Source of the DNA: an uncultured Acidobacteriota bacterium
GTDB lineage: Bacteria > Acidobacteriota > Vicinamibacteria > Vicinamibacterales > CAVVIG01
Direction: 5' to 3'
NCBI GenBank assembly: GCA_963821285.1
Contig: CAWGDD010000007.1
Location: 148,436 to 212,435, forward strand
DNA: 64,000 nt
Shown here: one piece after another, positions 9,934-64,000 of the stretch
Position numbering within the stretch: position 1 is the stretch's first letter
Layout of the letters: every line of letters begins with the position of its first letter
Notes under the pieces: model-generated
Databases searched by the model: none
The model's input: the letters and a program-made list of their open reading frames with translations, nothing else
What the model was told of the DNA's origin: nothing
Program-made: the position numbers and the translations under genes

Positions 9934-11351
9934 TCGCCGTTCAAGTCGTCGTCGTGGGCGGCGGCCCGGGCGGCTACGCCGCCGCGTTTCTCGCGGCCGA
10001 CCTCGGCCTCAAGACCGCACTGATCGATCCCGAGCTCAATCCCGGCGGCGTCTGCGTGTACCGGGGCTGCATCCCGTCCAAGGCGCTCCTGCACGTCGCG
10101 AAGCTTGTCGCCGAAGCGCGCCACGCGAACGCCTGGGGCATCACCTTCAGCGAGCCGACGATCGATCTGGACAAACTGCGCGCGTTCAAGAATCAGGTCG
10201 TCGCGCGCCTGACCGGCGGCACGGGGTTGCTCGCCAAGAGCCGGAAGGTGCAGTACCTGCAGGGGCTTGCATCGATCGAAGATGCGCACACGTTGCGCGT
10301 GAAGCTCGTGTCCGGCGGGGAAGAGACGGTGCAGTTCGAGCATGCGATCCTGGCGACCGGATCGGTGCCGGCCGTGCCGGCGTCGCTCCGCCTGCCTGGA
10401 GGGGATGACCCGCGCGTCATGGACTCGACGGCAGCGTTGAACCTGCCCGCCATCCCGCCATCCCTGCTCGTGGTCGGCGGGGGATACATCGGCCTCGAAC
10501 TCGGCACGGTCTACGCCGCACTCGGCAGCGCCGTCACCGTGGTCGAAATGACGCCAGGCCTGCTGCCCGGCGCCGATCGGGACCTGGTGGACATCCTGGC
10601 CAAAGGCATCGGCAAGACGATGAAGGCCGTGCTGCTCAACACGCGCGTCGTGCAGATGAAGGCCGAGCCAGGCGGAATCCGCGTGACCTTCGACGGCGGA
10701 CAGTCCGGCGACGCGGTGTTCGATCGCGTGCTCGTCGCCGTGGGCCGTCGGCCCAACGCCAGCGTGCCCGGCCTCGACCGCACGCAAGTCAGGCTCGACG
10801 AACGGGGCTTCATCGTCGTGGACGGGCAGATGCGGACGGCCGAGCCGTCGATCTTCGCCATCGGCGACGTCGTGGGCGAGCCGATGCTGGCGCACAAGGC
10901 GTCGCACGAAGGGCGGACGGCCGTCGAAGTCATCGCCGGCCACAAGGCCGTGTTCGAGCCCCAGGCGATTCCCGCTGTCGTGTTCACCGACCCCGAACTG
11001 GCGTGGGCCGGATTGACAGAGGCGCAGGCTCAGGCCGCCGGACGGACGGTGAGCGTGGCGAAGTTTCCGTGGGCGGCGTCAGGCCGCGCGATCACACTCG
11101 ACCGCGTGGACGGCCTCACCAAGCTGCTGATCGATCCGGTGACCGAGCGCATCCTGGGTGTCGGCCTCGTCGGCAGCGGCGCCGGCGAATTGATCGCCGA
11201 GGCCGTCGTGGCGATCGAGATGGGCGCGACCGCGTCGGATCTGAAGCTGTCCATCCACCCGCATCCCACTCTGACCGAGACGCTGATGGAGGCCGCCGAA
11301 GTGTTCTTCGGCCAGGCGACGCACGTCTACAAGCCGAAGCGGCCGTCCTAG
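9930..11351 (+). CDS. lpdA: Dihydrolipoyl dehydrogenase E3
   Basis: VVGGGPGGYAAAF, redox disulfide GGVCVYRGCIPSK, C-terminal HPHPTLTE. ATGA overlap with aceF. Confidence 0.9.
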   Translation: MIAVQVVVVGGGPGGYAAAFLAADLGLKTALIDPELNPGGVCVYRGCIPSKALLHVAKLVAEARHANAWGITFSEPTIDLDKLRAFKNQVVARLTGGTGLLAKSRKVQYLQGLASIEDAHTLRVKLVSGGEETVQFEHAILATGSVPAVPASLRLPGGDDPRVMDSTAALNLPAIPPSLLVVGGGYIGLELGTVYAALGSAVTVVEMTPGLLPGADRDLVDILAKGIGKTMKAVLLNTRVVQMKAEPGGIRVTFDGGQSGDAVFDRVLVAVGRRPNASVPGLDRTQVRLDERGFIVVDGQMRTAEPSIFAIGDVVGEPMLAHKASHEGRTAVEVIAGHKAVFEPQAIPAVVFTDPELAWAGLTEAQAQAAGRTVSVAKFPWAASGRAITLDRVDGLTKLLIDPVTERILGVGLVGSGAGELIAEAVVAIEMGATASDLKLSIHPHPTLTETLMEAAEVFFGQATHVYKPKRPS

Positions 11352-11677
11352 GCCGCGCCGGTCCGCAGTTCCTGTTCGGCGAACGAACGCGCGGCCATCA
11401 TCCACGCGTTGCTGACCCTCAGCCCATACGCCGTCGGACGGTACCAGCGCCGCGGGAGGCCGATAGCGCCCGGGGGGAGCGGCTCGGTCCGCGATTCGAC
11501 GTAGCCCTTGTCCTGCATACGGCCGAGCGTGACGTACACGGTGCCGCGTTTCAGCGCGCCCTCGGAGCGGTCCACCAGCTGCAGGCCGAAGAGTTCCCCC
11601 TGGCGCAGCAGATCCAGAATCAGACGTTCGGTGCCCGAGAGCCGCGGAACCGGTCGAGACATGTCATTCGTCATCAT
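11348..11677 (-). CDS. PadR-family transcriptional regulator
   Basis: 109 aa; LILDLLRQGELFGLQLVDRSEGALKRGTVYVTLGRMQDKGYVE winged-helix pattern. Confidence 0.7.
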   Translation of the reverse strand: MMTNDMSRPVPRLSGTERLILDLLRQGELFGLQLVDRSEGALKRGTVYVTLGRMQDKGYVESRTEPLPPGAIGLPRRWYRPTAYGLRVSNAWMMAARSFAEQELRTGAA

Positions 11678-50834: not shown

Positions 50835-51656
50835 TCAGGCCCCCATCGCGGCGGCCAGCGCGTTGAAGTCCTGCGCCACGACGTCGAAGACTGGATCGGC
50901 GGTGAAGTTCCTCTCGCCGTTGGGCCCTTCCTGAGGACGTGGAACGAACGCCGTCCTGAACCCGACGCCGCGCGCGGCGCGCAGGTCGTTCTGGTGCGCC
51001 GCGACCATCATGAGCTCCGAGGGCTTGAGGCTCAGGAGGTCAGCCGCCGTGAGGTAGACCTCCTTATCGGGCTTGTAGTGCCGCGCGAGCTCGGCGCCGA
51101 GGATCAGGTCCCAGGGCAGCCCGGCGTGTTTGGCCATGTCGGTCATCAGCGACACGTTGCCGTTCGAGAGCGGCGCGATGATGAACTTCTTCTTCAGGCG
51201 CGTGAGGCCGCTCACGGCGTCAGGCCACGGCTTCAGGCGGTGCCAGACGCGGTTCAGGTTGTCGATCTCGGCCTCGCTCAAGCCCTTCACGTTGAAATCG
51301 GCGAGCACTTTGTCGAGCATCATGCGGTGGAGGGCGTCGAGCTTGGTCCAGGGCAGCTCACCCTTGCGGACGCGGTCCATCGCGGGCGCGTAGGCGCCGC
51401 GCCACGCGTCGGCGAACTTTGCCCAGTCGACGGTGAGGCCCTTGGCTTTACCGAGCGCTTCGCCTTCGCTGATGATCGTGCTGCGATAGTCGACCACTGT
51501 GCCGAACGTGTCGAACACGAGCGCCTTCACAGCGCCCAGATCGCGTGCCGTCCGGCTGGCCGTCTGCCCGGCCGCGCCGAGCGGCACCGCCGACAAGGTG
51601 CCTCCGACGATCGCGATGGAACCCGCCTGAAGAAATTCGCGGCGCGTGGCGCTCAT
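50835..51656 (-). CDS. Haloacid dehalogenase type II-like HAD hydrolase with Tat signal peptide
   Basis: MSATRREFLQAGSIAIVGG (twin-arginine signal); LVFDTFGTVVD (DxxGT nucleophile motif); later HAD motifs. Confidence 0.7.
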   Translation of the reverse strand: MSATRREFLQAGSIAIVGGTLSAVPLGAAGQTASRTARDLGAVKALVFDTFGTVVDYRSTIISEGEALGKAKGLTVDWAKFADAWRGAYAPAMDRVRKGELPWTKLDALHRMMLDKVLADFNVKGLSEAEIDNLNRVWHRLKPWPDAVSGLTRLKKKFIIAPLSNGNVSLMTDMAKHAGLPWDLILGAELARHYKPDKEVYLTAADLLSLKPSELMMVAAHQNDLRAARGVGFRTAFVPRPQEGPNGERNFTADPVFDVVAQDFNALAAAMGA

Positions 51657-52380: not shown

Positions 52381-52456
52381 GGTCATTGGTCATCGGTCAT
52401 TCTGTCATCTCCCTTGGCAATTGCACAACGAGACAGATGCAAATGACAGGACCAAT
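52381..52456. repeat. Heptamer array ggtcatt ggtcatc ggtcatt ctgtcat facing a complementary arm (hairpin), downstream of the POT transporter gene
   Basis: Left arm 52381-52411, right arm gagacagatgcaaatgacaggaccaat 52430-52456. Shares GGTCATT(T)CTGTCATC with 36098-36114. Confidence 0.75.
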
Positions 52457-52460
52457 TCGC

Positions 52461-53715
52461 TCACCCCTCTGCGCGCGCGATCGTTCTCTTGATCTGAGGG
52501 GTGAGGAGCGAGAGCGGCACGGCGACGGCGATCAGGATCGCGACGACCATGAAGAAGAACCGGCTGTGCGGCATGGCGTCCCAGATAGCGGCCGACGTAG
52601 CCCGACAGATAGCCGCCGAGGCCGAGGCTGGCGAACCAGCCGCCCATCATCAGGCCGCGGAGTTGCGGCGGCGACAGGCTGTTGACGAGCGACATGCCCA
52701 TCGGGCTGAGGGCGATTTCGCCGACGGCGATGAGCAGGTTCGCCGAGATCAGCCACAGCGGCGACACGCGGCCCGCGTCGCCGCCGAGGGTCCCGGCGGA
52801 GCCGAGCAGGCTGAACGCGGCGCCGACGAAGAAAACGCCGATCAGCATTTTCACCGGCGTGGACGGCTCGGATCCGCGCTTCTGCAGCCACGCCCAGAGG
52901 GCCACGAGCACCGGGGACAGCAGAATGACGCCGAGCGGTTCGAACGGCTGGAACGTTTCAGGCGCCCACGACGTCGCGGTGTTGTCACGGGCCCAGAAGG
53001 TGAACGTATAGAAGATCTGGTAGAACGCGATCCAGAACACCAGCGAGATCCCGAAGATCGCCATCAGCGTGACGACGCGCGAGCGGACTTCATCCGGCGG
53101 AAGCGCCCTGGAGTCCGCGGACCCTTTGTCGGCCTTGACCCCCGCCTCCGCCACGTGGTGCTTGAACGCCACGAACGTAATGAGCGAGAAGATCATCGCG
53201 ACGGCTGCGGACATGAACGCGACGCTCCAGCCGTAGTGCGCGCGCAGCCAGGCCACCGACAGCGGCGACACGAACGCGCCGATATTCACGCCCATGTAGT
53301 AGATGTTGAAACCCTGGTCGCGCAGCTCCGGACGGTCGCGGTAGAGGTTGCCGACGAGCGTCGACACGTTGGGCTTGAGCAGCCCGCTTCCGCACGCCAG
53401 CAGCACGAGGCCGGAGTAGAAAAACGGCAGCGCCTCGACGCCCAGCACGAGATGGCCGAGCATCATCAGCACCCCGCCCACGATGATCGCCCGGCTGAAA
53501 CCGAGCAGTCGATCGGCCAGCAGGCCGCCGACGACCGGGAGGATGTAGACGCCCGCGGTGTACAAACCGTAGACGCGCCCGACACGCGCGATGTCGAAAT
53601 GCAGCGATTCGTTCATGTAGAGCGACAGAATCGCCATCATCGAATAGAAGCTGTAGCGCTCCCACAGCTCCGTGAAGAACAGGACGTAGAGTCCGGGTGG
53701 ATGCTTTGTCGCCAT
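52461..53715 (-). pseudogene. Proton-dependent oligopeptide transporter (POT/PTR2, DtpT-like), disrupted as assembled by a +1 frameshift near 52589
   Basis: MATKHPPGLYVLFFTELWERYSFYSMMAIL...GGLLADRLLG...; tail ...GGYLSGYVG | AIWDAMPHSRFFFMVVAILIAVAVPLSLLTPQIKRTIARAEG*. The upstream 1.5 kb of track ORF 52405..55236 is antisense to the radical-SAM gene. Confidence 0.8.
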
Positions 53716-53787
53716 GGTTTCTGTCGCGTCCGGCCTGAGCCGGACGGAGCATAGCAGACACTGTGACAGAATGTTCCGGAGACCCGC

Positions 53788-55161
53788 ATGCGTGCGCTGC
53801 TCATTTCCACGTACGAGTTGGGGCGTCAGCCGTACGGCCTGGCGTCGCCGGCCGCCTGGCTGCGCCGCGCGGGCTGGGACGTCGTCTGCGCCGACGTGAC
53901 CAGGGAACGGCTGCAGCGAGCCAGCATCGAAGGCGCCGATCTGGTCGGCTTTCACCTGCCGATGCATACCGCGACCCGCCTGGCCGGCCCGGTCATCCGC
54001 ACAGTCAGGCAGATCAACCCGTCCGCTCGTATCTGTGCGTACGGGTTGTACGCACCGCTCAACGGCGGCTGGCTCCGGTCGATTGGCGTCGATGCGGTGT
54101 TTGGCGGCGAGTTCGAGGAAGAGCTGACGACGTACGCCACGCGAGCAGACGACGGCAGCCCGGCCGCGCAGAGCGCCTCGCTCCCGCGCATTCACTACCT
54201 CGTGCCCGATCGCCGGGGGCTTCCGCCGCCGGCGTCGTATGCGGTGCTTCACATGGGCGATGGGCGGCAGAAGGTCGTCGGATCGACGGATGCGAGCCGG
54301 GGGTGCAAGCACCTCTGCCGGCACTGTCCCGTCGTGCCGATCTACCACGGCCAGTTTCGCATCGTGCCGCCCGAGGTCGTCCTGGCCGACGTGACCGCCC
54401 AGGTCCAGGCCGGGGCCGAACACATCACCTTCGGCGATCCCGATTTCTTCAACGGTCCGACGCACGCGATGCGGGTGGTGGACGCGCTGCACGCAGCGCA
54501 TCCGGACGTCACTTACGACGTCACCATCAAGGTCGAGCACCTGCTGCGCCACCGCGACCTGCTCCCCAGGCTGTCCGCGAGCGGCTGCGCCTTCGTCACG
54601 AGCGCGGTTGAATCCATTGACGACGGGGTGCTGCGGATGCTGGAGAAGGGCCACACGCGTCAGGATTTCGTGGACGCGGTCGCCGTGTGCCGCGAGGCGG
54701 GCCTGACCTTCGTGCCCACGTTCGTCGCGTTCCACCCGTGGCTCACGCTCGGCGGCTACTGCGATCTGCTCGATCTCATCGATCGTCTCGACCTCATCGA
54801 CCATGTGGCGCCCATCCAGCTGGCGATTCGCCTGCTCATCCCCGAAGGGTCCCGGCTGCTCGAGCTGGACGACGTGCAGGCGCGTATCGGGCCGTTCGAC
54901 GCGGAGACGCTCGCGTATCCCTGGGTGCATCCGGATCCTCGGGTGGACGATCTCCACCGCGAGATCGGCCGGCTGGTCGGCGTGAGGGTTGCCGCCGATC
55001 GGCGGGCGATGTTCGACGAGATCGGGGCCATCGCGTACGAGCGGGCCGGCAGACCCTCCAGGCACGTGGGGCCGCGGCGCGAGCGGAGAGCCGTGCCGCA
55101 GCTGAGCGAGCCGTGGTACTGCTGCGCCGAACCCGACCCCGATCACCTGAGCCTCGTGTGA
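53788..55161 (+). CDS. B12-binding-like domain/radical SAM protein with C-terminal CCAEP tail
   Basis: CKHLCRHC (CxxxCxxC) cluster motif. N-terminal Rossmann-like domain. The tail SEPWYCCAEPDPDHLSLV matches what I recall as the CUAEP/CCAEP-tail radical SAM family name. Confidence 0.75.
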   Translation: MRALLISTYELGRQPYGLASPAAWLRRAGWDVVCADVTRERLQRASIEGADLVGFHLPMHTATRLAGPVIRTVRQINPSARICAYGLYAPLNGGWLRSIGVDAVFGGEFEEELTTYATRADDGSPAAQSASLPRIHYLVPDRRGLPPPASYAVLHMGDGRQKVVGSTDASRGCKHLCRHCPVVPIYHGQFRIVPPEVVLADVTAQVQAGAEHITFGDPDFFNGPTHAMRVVDALHAAHPDVTYDVTIKVEHLLRHRDLLPRLSASGCAFVTSAVESIDDGVLRMLEKGHTRQDFVDAVAVCREAGLTFVPTFVAFHPWLTLGGYCDLLDLIDRLDLIDHVAPIQLAIRLLIPEGSRLLELDDVQARIGPFDAETLAYPWVHPDPRVDDLHREIGRLVGVRVAADRRAMFDEIGAIAYERAGRPSRHVGPRRERRAVPQLSEPWYCCAEPDPDHLSLV

Positions 55162-56456
55162 TGGGCGCGCGCCGCGTTCTTCTCTTCGCGACCACCACCG
55201 GCTACCAGACCCGCAGTTTCGGCGACGCCGCCGCACGGATTGGCGCCGATCTCGTCTTCGCGACCGACCGCTGCGACATGCTCGAGGACCCGTGGCAGGA
55301 CGCGGCCATCCCGGTGCGGTTCCACGAAGAAGACCGATCCGTTGCCGTCATCCTCGAGCGGGCTCGCACCCATCCTGTCGACGGCATCCTGGTTGTCGGC
55401 GACCGCCCGACGACGATCGCCGCCCTGGTCGGCGAGGCGCTCGGACTGCCCGGGCACCAGCCCATGGCCACGGCTGTCGCGCGCAACAAGCTGCTGACCC
55501 GCGAACGGCTGCGCGACAGCGATCTGCACGTGCCGTGGTTCTTCCCGACCGATGCGGCCGCCGACCCGGAGCAGCTCGCCCCCGGCCTGACATACCCGTG
55601 CGTCGTCAAACCGCTGTCGCTGTCGGCAAGCCGCGGCGTCATGCGTGCGGACGACGAGGCGTCGTTTGTCGAGGCGTTCCAGCGCCTGCGGAAACTCCTC
55701 GCCTCGCCCGACGTTCGCGCCGAGCGCGACGAGGCGCATGACGGCATCCTCATCGAGGGCTTCATCGAGGGATGGGAGTTCGCCCTCGAGGGGCTTCTGC
55801 ATCACGGTTCGCTGTACGAGCTGGCGCTCTTCGACAAGCCCGATCCGCTCGACGGTCCGTTCTTCGAGGAGACGATCTACGTGACGCCGTCGCTCGCGCC
55901 CGAGCCGATGCAGCGCGACATCGTCGACGCGATCGCCCGCGCCGCGGCCGCCATCGGCCTGACGCACGGCCCGATTCATGCCGAGTGCCGCGTCAACGAC
56001 CACGGCGTTTACGTGCTCGAAGTGGCGGCCAGGCCCATCGGCGGGCTGTGCGCCGGCGCGCTGCGGTTCGAGAAGCACGAGGCGCGCGGGAAGCCCGGCT
56101 CGATCTCCCTCGAGGAGCTTCTGCTGCGCCACGCGCTCGGCGAATCGCCCGAGGACTGGCGGCGCGAGGCGGCGGCGTCGGGCGTCATGATGATTCCCAT
56201 TCCGCAGCCGGGCATCTATCGCGGCGTCGAGGGCGTCGAGGCTGCCAGGGCCGTGCGGGGCATCGACGACGTGCGGATCACGGCCAAACCCGACCAGAAG
56301 CTCGTGCCGCTGCCGGAGGGCGCCAGCTACCTCGGGTTTATCTTCGCCCGGGGCGTCACGTCGGCGGATGCCGAACAATCCCTGCGGGACGCCCATGCGT
56401 GTCTGGGCTTCGCCATCGATCCCGAGGTCCCGATGGTAAGATCACCAAATGGCTGA
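55161..56456 (+). CDS. ATP-grasp domain protein
   Basis: TGATG overlap with the radical-SAM gene. YPCVVKPLSLSASRGVMRADD...GILIEGFIEGWEFALEG...GPIHAECRVNDHGVYVLEVAARPIGG. Confidence 0.75.
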   Translation: MGARRVLLFATTTGYQTRSFGDAAARIGADLVFATDRCDMLEDPWQDAAIPVRFHEEDRSVAVILERARTHPVDGILVVGDRPTTIAALVGEALGLPGHQPMATAVARNKLLTRERLRDSDLHVPWFFPTDAAADPEQLAPGLTYPCVVKPLSLSASRGVMRADDEASFVEAFQRLRKLLASPDVRAERDEAHDGILIEGFIEGWEFALEGLLHHGSLYELALFDKPDPLDGPFFEETIYVTPSLAPEPMQRDIVDAIARAAAAIGLTHGPIHAECRVNDHGVYVLEVAARPIGGLCAGALRFEKHEARGKPGSISLEELLLRHALGESPEDWRREAAASGVMMIPIPQPGIYRGVEGVEAARAVRGIDDVRITAKPDQKLVPLPEGASYLGFIFARGVTSADAEQSLRDAHACLGFAIDPEVPMVRSPNG

Positions 56457-56775
56457 TGCCTGCGAACCCACTCCGCCCAAGCCGCCCGCCGGCAACACGA
56501 GCGGACGCAAAGTGAAATGCGCGAAGCTCCAGCGGGAGTTGCCGGCGCTCGACTCGCCGCCGTGGCCGGGCGAACTCGGCCAGCGCGTCTACGAGAACAT
56601 CTCCGCCGAAGCCTGGAAGATGTGGGAAGAGCGGATGAAGATGATCCTCAACGAGTACCGCCTGATGCCGTGGCAGAAAGAGGCGCAGGACCTCGTCGCG
56701 AAGCACATGGAGGAATTCTTCTTCGGCGAAGGTTCGGCCCTCCCGCCTGAATACGTCCCCCAGCAGGCGAAGTAG
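56449..56775 (+). CDS. yggX: YggX-like Fe(2+)-trafficking / oxidative-damage protection protein with a ~20-aa N-terminal extension
   Basis: 8-nt overlap with the ATP-grasp gene. VKCAKLQRELPALDSPPWPGELGQRVYENISAEAWKMWEERMKMILNEYRL. Confidence 0.7.
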   Translation: MADACEPTPPKPPAGNTSGRKVKCAKLQRELPALDSPPWPGELGQRVYENISAEAWKMWEERMKMILNEYRLMPWQKEAQDLVAKHMEEFFFGEGSALPPEYVPQQAK

Positions 56776-56820
56776 GGCCGGCCTTCAGGCCCGCGTCGTT
56801 GGACGGTCGCAATGGCCGGA

Positions 56821-57685: not shown

Positions 57686-57689
<4 letters not shown>
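57267..57689 (-). CDS. osmC: OsmC-family peroxiredoxin
   Basis: NPEELIAAAHAACFSMAL...SGCPISRLL. ATGA overlap with the PFOR stop. Confidence 0.85.
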
Positions 57690-62404
<4,715 letters not shown>

Positions 62405-62958
62405 GACACCTCTCCACGCCGGTGTGGTGAGTACGCGGGACGGTCGCTGCCGCCGCCGCGCCTCGGACGGAGTTTCTTGTCGGCCGTGCGGCGGCCGTCC
62501 GAAGGTGCCGACGACGGGCTTCGCCAGCTCGGCGAAGTCGCCGTAGTGCATGCAGATGGCTTCCGTGTGGGTGCCGGCGTTGAAGACCATCTCCGGCTCT
62601 CCGACGAGGCACCGGTCCACGAACACCCGCTGTCCGTACGCCGCGCCGAACGGGGGCATCGCGCCGACTTCGCACTCGGGGCAAAGCGCCGCGATCTCGT
62701 CCTCCTGCGCCAGGCGCAGCGCGTTGGCGTTGGCGAGCAGTCGGAGTTGCTCGAAGTCCACCCTGTAATGCGCCGGGAGCACCGCCTGTACGGGAACGTC
62801 GTCAGCGATGCAGATGACGACTTTGGCCCAGCACCGTTGATGGATATGGGACAGCGGCGGCTTCTTCCTGGGCCGTATAAGCCGGGACATGCGTGAAGCA
62901 GGTATACGGCACCCGCTCCTGCTCTCAGCAGTTCCGCGATCCAGGAAATTAGCGGCAC
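62405..62958 (-). pseudogene. YbaK/ProX-like aminoacyl-tRNA editing-domain protein, two +1 frameshifts (~62910, ~62855); 3' end unresolved (frame runs into the PFOR start without a stop)
   Basis: GTG 62958 follows aagggggg. (M)PLISWIAELLRAGAG | PYTCFTHVPAYTAQEEAAA | SHIHQRCWAKVVICIADDVPVQAVLPAHYRVDFEQLR...EVGAMPPFGAAYGQRVFVD...FNAGTHTEAI. Confidence 0.5.
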
Positions 62959-63124: not shown

Positions 63125-64000
63125 TTACGCCGTAGGAAGGGACGCGACCTGCACGCGCGCGTCGTTGAAGCACGCGCCGCCCGCGATATCCGTCAGCGCA
63201 TCCGGGACGAGCGACGTGCCGGTCGCGCCGTTGCGCGTGCTGCGGCGCCAGAGACCCTTCGGCAGGCTGATCGTGCCCGGGCGGATGGAGGGCGCCACCT
63301 GCAGCGGGCAGTGCACTTCGCCTAGATCGTTGAAGATTCTGACGAGATCCCCGTCCGACAGCCCTCGCGCCTCGGCGTCCGCCGGATGCATCAGCAGCTT
63401 CACGTCGGGGCGGGGCAGCTGTCCGAGCGTCGAGCTGATCGTCCGCTCGCTGGCGGGCGAGATGAGCGCCAGCGGATACTGGCCCGTCGCCGGATCCGGT
63501 TGAAACGCGTAGAGCCCCATCGGCGCTGACGATTCGTACTCGGCGGGAAAGAGATCGACTTTGCGATCGCGCGTGTTGGGGAACACGTCCACGAACTGCA
63601 CCGGTGCCGGACCGCAGGGCGCCGTGGGCGGCACGTCCGCGCTCAGGTCAGCCCCCATCGTGCCCGGCAGCCCGTCGAGGACCTTGACCAGGAGATCGAG
63701 CTCGCCGGTCGCTTCGCCAGGTTGAAGCAGATCGAGCCGTGACGCCAGATCGCCGAACACGTCGGCGTTCGACCGCGACTCGCCGACGACGTCCACAATC
63801 GGACGCGCCAGCCCCATATGAATCGGTCCATATGCCTTGGCGAAGTCGTATCCCTCGAGAAAGGTCGTGTTCGGCAGCACCACGTCCGCGTAGAGCGCCG
63901 TGTCCGTCATCACCTGCTCGAACACGACCGTGAACAAATCCTCACGCTCCATCCCCCGGACGATGCGCCGCTGATCGGGGACGGTCGCGACGGGGTTGCA
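63125..64000 (-). CDS. Molybdopterin-dependent oxidoreductase (DMSO-reductase family), C-terminal part; 5' end beyond the window
   Basis: The frame stays open to the window edge (CNPVATVPDQRRIVRGMEREDLFTVVFEQVMTDTALYADVVLPNTTFLE...). The C-terminal MopB_CT-like part reads MHPADAEARGLSDGDLVRIFNDLGEVHCPLQV. Confidence 0.75.
   Translation of the reverse strand, partial: CNPVATVPDQRRIVRGMEREDLFTVVFEQVMTDTALYADVVLPNTTFLEGYDFAKAYGPIHMGLARPIVDVVGESRSNADVFGDLASRLDLLQPGEATGELDLLVKVLDGLPGTMGADLSADVPPTAPCGPAPVQFVDVFPNTRDRKVDLFPAEYESSAPMGLYAFQPDPATGQYPLALISPASERTISSTLGQLPRPDVKLLMHPADAEARGLSDGDLVRIFNDLGEVHCPLQVAPSIRPGTISLPKGLWRRSTRNGATGTSLVPDALTDIAGGACFNDARVQVASLPTA

Follow-up and report, generated by a model that had tools for sequence, protein, structure and literature searches.

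To our knowledge, no radical S-adenosylmethionine (SAM) enzyme with a CxxxCxxC motif other than ArsL, which forms the carbon-arsenic bond of the antibiotic arsinothricin, has so far been found to cleave SAM "the wrong way". ArsL breaks SAM at the C-gamma-S bond, giving methylthioadenosine and a 3-amino-3-carboxypropyl (ACP) radical or Fe-ACP species, and attaches ACP to As(III), the cysteines of its RCCLKC tail binding the arsenic (bioRxiv 10.1101/2024.02.01.577332; bioRxiv 10.64898/2026.04.29.721666). The most active variant on methylarsenic was an engineered ArsL with the tail shortened to M-C-C-A (PMC13598754). The CCAEP/CUAEP-tail family, which also ends in a vicinal pair of this kind, was described as uncharacterised in the Haft 2022 preprint, where its CU motifs were taken to suggest heavy-atom chemistry; our literature search for the family found no later paper, and this gene family is named but uncharacterised. 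Here we analyse a member encoded in a 64-kb stretch of DNA from an uncultured soil bacterium of the Acidobacteriota (contig CAWGDD010000007.1; hereafter the window), where it heads a three-gene operon (53788-56775, + strand) together with genes for an ATP-grasp ligase and the iron protein YggX. The data directly support its family membership, its motifs, the architecture of the operon, the conservation of the gene partnership, and selenocysteine in orthologues.

Operon architecture and family assignments

The operon and its upstream side contain the following features:

52405-53715, - strand: POT/PTR2 di/tripeptide:H+ symporter (PF00854 match; TIGR00924, 270.8 bits), a candidate associated transporter
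53716-53787, no strand: intergenic region of 72 nt between the divergent POT gene and the operon, the presumed promoter region; GGAG 6 nt before the ATG
53788-55161, + strand: open reading frame (ORF) 1, 457 aa, CCAEP-tail radical SAM protein consisting of a Rossmann/B12-binding-like domain at the N-terminus, the radical SAM core and a flexible tail at the C-terminus
54304-54327, + strand: CxxxCxxC [4Fe-4S]/SAM motif CKHLCRHC, read from the sequence as ORF1 residues 173-180
55108-55134, + strand: tail motif E-P-W-Y-C-C-A-E-P, ORF1 residues 441-449; Cys445-Cys446 encoded by TGC TGC at 55120-55125
55161-56456, + strand: ORF2, L-amino-acid-ligase-type ATP-grasp protein, 431 aa, in translational coupling with the radical SAM gene
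56449-56775, + strand: ORF3, YggX/Fe(2+)-trafficking protein, 108 aa, with a Cys-containing, Pro-rich N-terminal extension

An earlier note on this DNA had described three mutually overlapping reading frames, and the coordinates hold. The ORF1 stop TGA (55159-55161) and the ORF2 ATG (55161-55163) have one A in common within TGATG (55159-55163), an in-frame GTG at 55158 being an alternative ORF2 start, and the ORF3 ATG (56449) lies before the ORF2 stop (56454-56456), giving an overlap of 8 nt (56449-56456; ATGGCTGA). Read directly, the C-terminal end of ORF1 is ...SEPWYCCAEPDPDHLSLV. As the note had also stated, no precursor-sized ORF is present in the 72-nt (53716-53787) or the 45-nt (56776-56820) flank. 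A promoter role for 53716-53787 is inferred only: no match to the sigma-70 consensus was found before the operon, a promoter/terminator scan gave no usable result, and an Rfam scan of the window returned nothing at the gathering threshold.

The ORF1 protein belongs to NCBIfam family NF040546 (CUAEP/CCAEP-tail radical SAM (seleno)protein), the family that the note had named; it scores 623.4 bits (E = 2.3e-187), far beyond chance and above the curated equivalog cut-off of 500, and covers profile positions 2-465 of 468. Its radical SAM motif and B12-binding-like N-domain, both read earlier from the letters alone, were recovered by Pfam as Radical_SAM (PF04055, 51.9 bits) and, barely over the cut-off of 32.1, B12-binding (PF02310, 32.6 bits). 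One database entry has an identical protein sequence, and the closest named relatives come from Vicinamibacterales/Acidobacteriota metagenome-assembled genomes. The protein entered none of the already characterised families: the second-best NCBIfam model, ArsL (NF040542), reached 259.2 bits (E = 7.7e-77) against a cut-off of 450, and B12-dependent radical SAM methyltransferases were rejected at 16-36 bits against cut-offs of 250-650, the models for PhpK, HpnR, MgmA and others giving 30-36 bits against 360-650. A role in maturing ribosomally synthesized and post-translationally modified peptides was rejected as well, there being no precursor gene and no auxiliary-cluster cysteine, and the corresponding models scoring 17-24 bits against cut-offs of 282-750.

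C173, C177 and C180 are invariant in three family alignments. Because the cysteines invariant across the wider family number only five, these three and the CC pair, the enzyme has neither an auxiliary cluster nor a SPASM domain; C83, C267 and C301, considered as a second cluster site, were rejected as not invariant in the wider family. An AlphaFold2 model of ORF1 built from 99 sequences (pLDDT 91.8, pTM 0.90) is confident except in the tail from about residue 441, where pLDDT falls to about 65, and on this model the tail is probably flexible. The best fold matches in the PDB are AprD4, then OxsB, TsrM and MgmA, with MiaB matching too. AprD4 (PDB 6FD2) shares the N-terminal cobalamin-binding-type domain and the radical SAM barrel (TM-score 0.68-0.71, E = 1e-20), but it is 20% identical, is a canonical diol dehydratase that forms 5'-deoxyadenosine (5'-dA), and has no Cys/Sec tail. 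By an exhaustive profile-free search (50%-identity clusters, E <= 1e-30) the family comprises 633 clusters, among which ArsL-type sequences may be included, and at least 583 species representatives were matched by two peptide patterns alone.

For the second and third genes, the domain matches agree with the ligase and the extended YggX proposed in the earlier note. ORF2 exceeds the Pfam cut-offs for ATPgrasp_N (37.3 bits), ATP-grasp_4 (103.4 bits) and LAL_C2 (55.6 bits), and among solved structures the L-amino acid ligase BL00235 comes closest to it (3VOT; E = 2.6e-39, residues 44-401, 358 aligned). By these sequence matches ORF2 is assigned to the L-amino-acid-ligase-type ATP-grasp proteins; it reached the cut-off of no NCBIfam equivalog model, and a homologue search with ORF2 as query returned close acidobacterial orthologues only, without informative names. 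It has the three-domain order ATPgrasp_N, ATP-grasp_4 and LAL_C2 of L-amino acid ligases such as BL00235, BacD/YwfE and DdaF, and differs from them in that its gene is coupled to those of a radical SAM enzyme and an iron protein. Known L-amino acid ligases join free amino acids into dipeptides, which are often "Trojan-horse" antimetabolites, and BL00235 prefers Met or Leu as the N-terminal substrate.

ORF3 is a member of the YggX/Iron_traffic family (NF003817, 114.8 bits against an equivalog cut-off of 74; PF04362, 111.2 bits against 27). Like YggX of E. coli and Salmonella, it keeps the equivalent of E. coli Cys7, in KVKCAKLQ, but it bears an extra N-terminus of about 17-20 aa with a Cys of its own and a Pro-rich linker (M-x-x-C-x-P, Pro-rich, N-K-S-G-R), and its gene is positionally tied to a specific radical SAM enzyme, with Nfu instead in other clades. 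The extension is conserved in most loci; it is translated sequence and not a mis-called start.

Tail motif and selenocysteine in orthologues

We compared ORF1 with its homologues in 82 loci (80 species-level genome loci, one metagenome locus and the window), numbered here with the prefix L. The tail motif W-[YF]-C-[C/U]-A-E-P is present in essentially all full-length homologues inspected and is retained down to 31% identity (31-35% among the most distant); the earlier note had made its reading depend on this point. Its further suggestion, that the second tail Cys can be selenocysteine, is borne out by the codons at that position: in the 77 loci in which the tail could be scored (5 further loci being unscorable), 54 have TGA and 23 encode CC, and in the TGA-type loci the conserved tail AEP...VALV continues in frame after the TGA. 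Gene callers and RefSeq cut TGA-type proteins at ...W-Y-C; the annotated Thermomicrobium roseum protein WP_012643191, for instance, ends ...SWFC, yet reading continues through the TGA into AEP. Among full-length cluster representatives, 29 carry CCAEP and 30 end directly after W-[YF]-C, which is the signature of an unrecognised selenocysteine codon. Selenocysteine forms are the majority among the acidobacterial orthologues, and selenocysteine is used by about half to two thirds of the family members. The window holds the CC form (TGC TGC), with no in-frame TGA at the second Cys and no hairpin resembling a selenocysteine insertion sequence.

Behind the TGA codons lies a hairpin that begins 14 nt past the TGA and has the consensus CAGAGC-AGGUG-GCUCUG with an A-G-G/U-U loop (L008-L081; for example L081, 11354-11400). 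Pairing is found in 84.9% of cells, as against 41-52% when the partners are slid, 34 cells have changes in both partners, and covariation scores 0.30 compared with 0.03-0.13 in slid controls. The support for the hairpin is this covariation, single-sequence folding z-scores being not significant; an Rfam search around a TGA-type tail gave nothing meaningful, and the hairpin was matched to no family.

A low-GC clade (GC 0.31-0.35; L100, L101, L106, L109, L137, L138, L142) has proteins 31-33% identical to ORF1 with the tail ETWFCC[AS]EP, and genes for a luciferase-like monooxygenase and a flavin reductase flank its radical SAM gene. By analogy, the pair looks like a two-component monooxygenase of the type used on organosulfur compounds.

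Vicinal Cys-Sec pairs exchangeable with Cys-Cys on a flexible C-terminal segment also occur in thioredoxin reductase tails and in the CU motifs of HgcA/SAO; the folds are unrelated, the sequence frame is another, and this is a resemblance only. It does raise the explanation that ORF1 is a radical SAM enzyme of the canonical kind, whose 5'-deoxyadenosyl radical would abstract H from a small molecule or from a dipeptide made by the ligase, while the CC/CU pair would act as a swinging redox arm, as the tail of thioredoxin reductase does (GCUG in mammals, SCCS in Drosophila): it would hand over electrons or an H atom and, in its cycle, form a vicinal disulfide or selenenylsulfide. The canonical CxxxCxxC motif, the class-B-like fold and the best match AprD4, which generates 5'-dA and has a cobalamin-binding-type domain, are all as this would have it, as is the exchange of Cys and Sec at the second position only of a flexible tail; thioredoxin reductase tails show comparable exchange. 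Flavin reductase and luciferase-like monooxygenase genes adjoin the gene in some clades, a hint of redox chemistry. However, ArsL, the sole characterised homologue, uses the aligned CC to bind substrate and not for redox, the loci show no conserved thioredoxin or reductase partner, and the strict W-[YF]-C-C-A-E-P frame has no counterpart in thioredoxin reductase tails. We regard the redox arm as rather unlikely.

Conservation of the gene neighbourhood

The partnership of radical SAM enzyme, ligase and iron helper is conserved, and it is not described in the literature that we searched. For this analysis genes were called with a start-trimming ORF caller and then clustered, ORFs in mixed-GC metagenome loci being chosen by cross-locus conservation. 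Of 69 acidobacterial loci long enough to judge, 62 have the ligase directly after the radical SAM gene and on its strand, and 66 have it within three genes. In Terriglobia (L059, L062, L063, L077) a gene for DUF169 comes between the radical SAM gene and the ligase gene, L059 ending before any ligase is visible; the other exceptions are L052 (flanked by insertion sequences), L076 and L058 (ligase 7 kb off). Of 68 loci, 61 have YggX after the ligase, in 26 of them co-directional and in 35 convergent. The trio is intact in L054, L072, L073, L078, L079 and L044 though all other flanking genes differ.

A second scan covered 80 distant metagenome loci (L093-L172) with proteins 31-56% identical to ORF1. 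In 22 of these 80 (clades of 41-56% identity) a member of the ligase family adjoins the radical SAM gene on one side or the other, and the neighbours include an Nfu_N+NifU Fe-S carrier (n = 19), YggX (n = 8) and DUF169 (n = 7; for example L135, 2538-3134, and L093, 100-891). None of these four recurrent partners was found in 13 of the 26 distant loci whose flanks are long in both directions, and in the 5 distinct Thermomicrobiales/Chloroflexota loci examined the radical SAM gene stands alone among unrelated neighbours. The dedicated pathway suggested in the earlier note is thus upheld as far as the synteny of ligase and YggX in Acidobacteriota goes, and not as a universal trio.

That two unrelated Fe or Fe-S helpers, YggX and Nfu, share this neighbourhood is the best evidence that YggX services the cluster of the enzyme. 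NfuA rebuilds the sacrificial cluster of lipoyl synthase.

Several further genes recur nearby. A protein of some 70 aa in which four Cys are invariant (RHRxCWY...C.HPM...FDVRNCxxC), without a match in Pfam, adjoins YggX in 13 loci (L005, L007, L010 at 11143-11367, L019, L021, L025, L032, L033, L047, L064, L067, L081, and L060, where the copy is on the opposite strand); the window lacks it. The neighbour of YggX in 25 loci is a cytoplasmic molybdenum-bis(pyranopterin guanine dinucleotide) oxidoreductase of the DMSO-reductase superfamily, which has an Fe4S4 domain at its N-terminus and lacks a signal peptide (window 63125-64000, - strand, running off the end; L064, 7032-9059). It reached no equivalog cut-off, its best partial matches being formate dehydrogenase and DMSO/selenate-family reductases, and in 8 loci the gene after it encodes a pyridine-nucleotide-disulfide oxidoreductase weakly resembling the "N-terminal-to-SelD" family. 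Directly past the radical SAM gene, and convergent to it, L094, L097 and L119 (9409-9780) have a small DsrE/DsrF-like ORF (20.4 bits against a cut-off of 22.7), a faint hint of a sulfur- or selenium-relay partner.

On the upstream side, YvcK, LigD phosphoesterase, LemA and TPM form a housekeeping gene order; a link to coenzyme F420 was considered and rejected, the upstream "CofD" homologue being YvcK. POT is the divergent upstream neighbour in 37 acidobacterial loci, and a co-directional PutP-like SSF symporter takes its place in 12; these transporters may or may not belong to the system, and their position is possibly inherited gene order.

The same could be said of the whole neighbourhood. 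The radical SAM enzyme may work alone, with the ligase and YggX placed beside it by inherited gene order and operon economy and unrelated to it in function. Both partners are missing in the five Thermomicrobiales/Chloroflexota loci, half of the long-flank distant loci have no recurrent partner, YggX is convergent, not co-transcribed, in 35 loci, and much of the upstream synteny is plainly housekeeping. Yet the trio is kept in the six loci with otherwise different flanks, several distant clades have the ligase next to the radical SAM gene in either order, the genes of the window overlap at their start and stop codons, and a ligase-type ATP-grasp gene recurs in the islands of the sister family ArsL. 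Such a lack of coupling seems to us improbable.

Comparison with ArsL and a possible mechanism

The homology with ArsL, which the earlier note does not mention, is the main mechanistic lead for ORF1. Annotated ArsL/RCCLKC-tail proteins encoded on plasmids (tblastn) are 32-34% identical to ORF1 over about 390 aa, and the vicinal CC of the ORF1 tail aligns with the CC of RCCLKC. Both proteins have a Rossmann-like domain at the N-terminus, a single CxxxCxxC cluster and, at the other end, a flexible tail with the aligned CC, and auxiliary-cluster Cys are missing in both families. They differ in that the ORF1 tail has two thiols (or Cys-Sec), not three, within its own frame W-[YF]-C-[CU]-A-E-P; in roughly 60 extra residues that ORF1 has ahead of the tail; and in that the CCAEP gene is chromosomal and very widespread in Acidobacteriota/Chloroflexota, whereas ArsL is found on arsenic islands and plasmids. 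The activity of the M-C-C-A variant means that two vicinal thiols are enough for ArsL-type transfer.

A second parallel lies in the gene content of ArsL-type islands. On plasmids of three Bacillota, Bacillus cereus, Priestia filamentosa and Alicyclobacillus acidocaldarius, these islands have a CMD (AhpD-like) gene and then an ATP-grasp gene (L090, 1139-2667; L091, 4430-5964; L092, 4118-9272); in Alicyclobacillus, genes for CMD, ATP-grasp, MFS, arsM and radical SAM proteins come in this order and all point the same way. The B. cereus island ATP-grasp, the only one scanned, has ATP-grasp_4 and LAL_C2 and is of the LAL type. With a ligase-type ATP-grasp beside both sister families, both would recruit an amino-acid ligase, which fits an alpha-amino-acid product that is then made into a peptide. 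The glutamine-synthetase-type antimetabolites bialaphos and tabtoxin are likewise made as peptides. The ArsL-island ligase suggests, from gene content, peptide derivatives of arsinothricin, and a literature search found no paper connecting arsinothricin with an ATP-grasp protein.

Based on these parallels, we propose that the operon combines an ArsL-like ACP transfer on the CC/CU pair with dipeptide ligation and with cluster maintenance by YggX. This reading is tentative, and we hold it as plausible though short of probable; the claim is that ORF1 may work like ArsL, not that it is ArsL. On the strength of the homology, the radical SAM enzyme would use its single [4Fe-4S] cluster to cleave SAM at C-gamma-S, giving methylthioadenosine and an ACP radical or Fe-ACP. 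ACP would then move to a soft thiophilic atom held by Cys445-Cys446 (Cys-Sec in most relatives) on the flexible tail, candidate acceptors being As (for example methylarsenite, for which two thiols are sufficient), Sb, Se or S, and the product would be a gamma-hetero-substituted 2-aminobutyrate. The ligase, to judge from its domain family and its adjacency, would convert an amino-acid carboxylate to an acyl phosphate and join the new amino acid to a second one. YggX, or an Nfu-type protein in other clades, could supply iron to, or repair, a cluster labile to oxygen and to turnover in these aerobes, and the divergent POT transporter may carry the dipeptide or its building blocks. A wider form of the claim, namely that CCAEP/CUAEP proteins are a second natural family of ACP-transferring radical SAM enzymes, forming a C-As, C-Sb, C-Se or C-S bond, and that in Acidobacteriota a dedicated L-amino acid ligase would turn the product into a hitherto unknown organo-metalloid or organo-chalcogen dipeptide, one produced by bacteria that rank among the most abundant in soil, is possible but on the unlikely side.

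Several observations weigh against an ArsL-like transfer: (i) membership of ORF1 in ArsL itself was rejected on score (259.2 against 450 bits), tail and context, the third tail Cys of RCCLKC being absent from ORF1, which has the CC pair only; (ii) ars, arsM, arsN and arsQ are not among the annotated conserved neighbour families of the 82 loci, several families there being unannotated, nor do they occur within about 7 kb on either side in the window, whereas true ArsL loci do show an arsM/arsQ/arsN/ars context; (iii) the literature gives no published sequence determinant of C-gamma-S versus C5'-S cleavage, so that non-canonical cleavage is unreadable from sequence; (iv) the island ATP-grasps are 22-24% identical to the window ligase (B. 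cereus and Alicyclobacillus compared), and the parallel is analogous, not orthologous; (v) the ligase is not an obligatory partner, because the five Thermomicrobiales/Chloroflexota loci have neither it nor YggX; and (vi) the core-gene-like distribution of the family fits a housekeeping role better than an antibiotic.

The recurrence of Fe-S supply proteins (YggX in 61 of the 68 loci, Nfu in 19 of the distant ones) bears also on formation of a C-S or C-Se bond by another route. The CC/CU pair could hold a persulfide or perselenide, or serve as a transient ligand to a sacrificial Fe-S cluster brought by Nfu or YggX; ACP or a substrate radical would attack the S or Se to give a (seleno)homocysteine-like compound or a thioether, and the ligase would make of it a dipeptide, for example a low-molecular-weight thiol or selenol. 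The fold match to the methylthiotransferase MiaB fits this, the DsrE-like ORF directly downstream in three loci might do so although it scores below the Pfam cut-off, and the preference of BL00235 for Met or Leu would suit a Met- or homocysteine-shaped amino acid. However, auxiliary-cluster Cys are absent, with five invariant Cys only, no cysteine desulfurase, SelD or rhodanese is conserved nearby, and homocysteine made from SAM would be metabolically circular. We consider such a route quite unlikely.

Elsewhere in the window, apart from the operon and its neighbours, two genes on the - strand are unusual:

50835-51656, - strand: type II haloacid dehalogenase homologue with an apparent twin-arginine signal at its N-terminus (MSATRREFLQAGS...)
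57686-62890, - strand: pyruvate:ferredoxin oxidoreductase (nifJ-like), split into at least four reading-frame segments (60398-62890; 58751-60259; 57754-59265 / 57762-58754; 57686-58057)

What looks from the sequence like a twin-arginine signal would be unusual in the normally cytoplasmic haloacid dehalogenase family. The broken nifJ-like gene is either a pseudogene or the result of local assembly indel errors.

Judged by its 633 clusters, possibly with ArsL-type sequences among them, the CCAEP/CUAEP family is larger than the 147 sequences listed for the ArsL model, and it resides in the dominant soil phyla Acidobacteriota and Chloroflexota. The window copy has Cys in place of selenocysteine, which allows expression in E. 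coli without the machinery for selenocysteine and makes the question of its chemistry directly testable. If the chemistry of ArsL is shared, the family would bring to soil a new carbon-heteroatom bond formation and a new class of amino-acid or dipeptide metabolites, and would provide a reason for the use of a selenoprotein in aerobes; the recurrent pairing of ArsL-family enzymes with amino-acid ligases predicts peptide arsinothricin-like compounds, parallel to bialaphos, tabtoxin and bacilysin.

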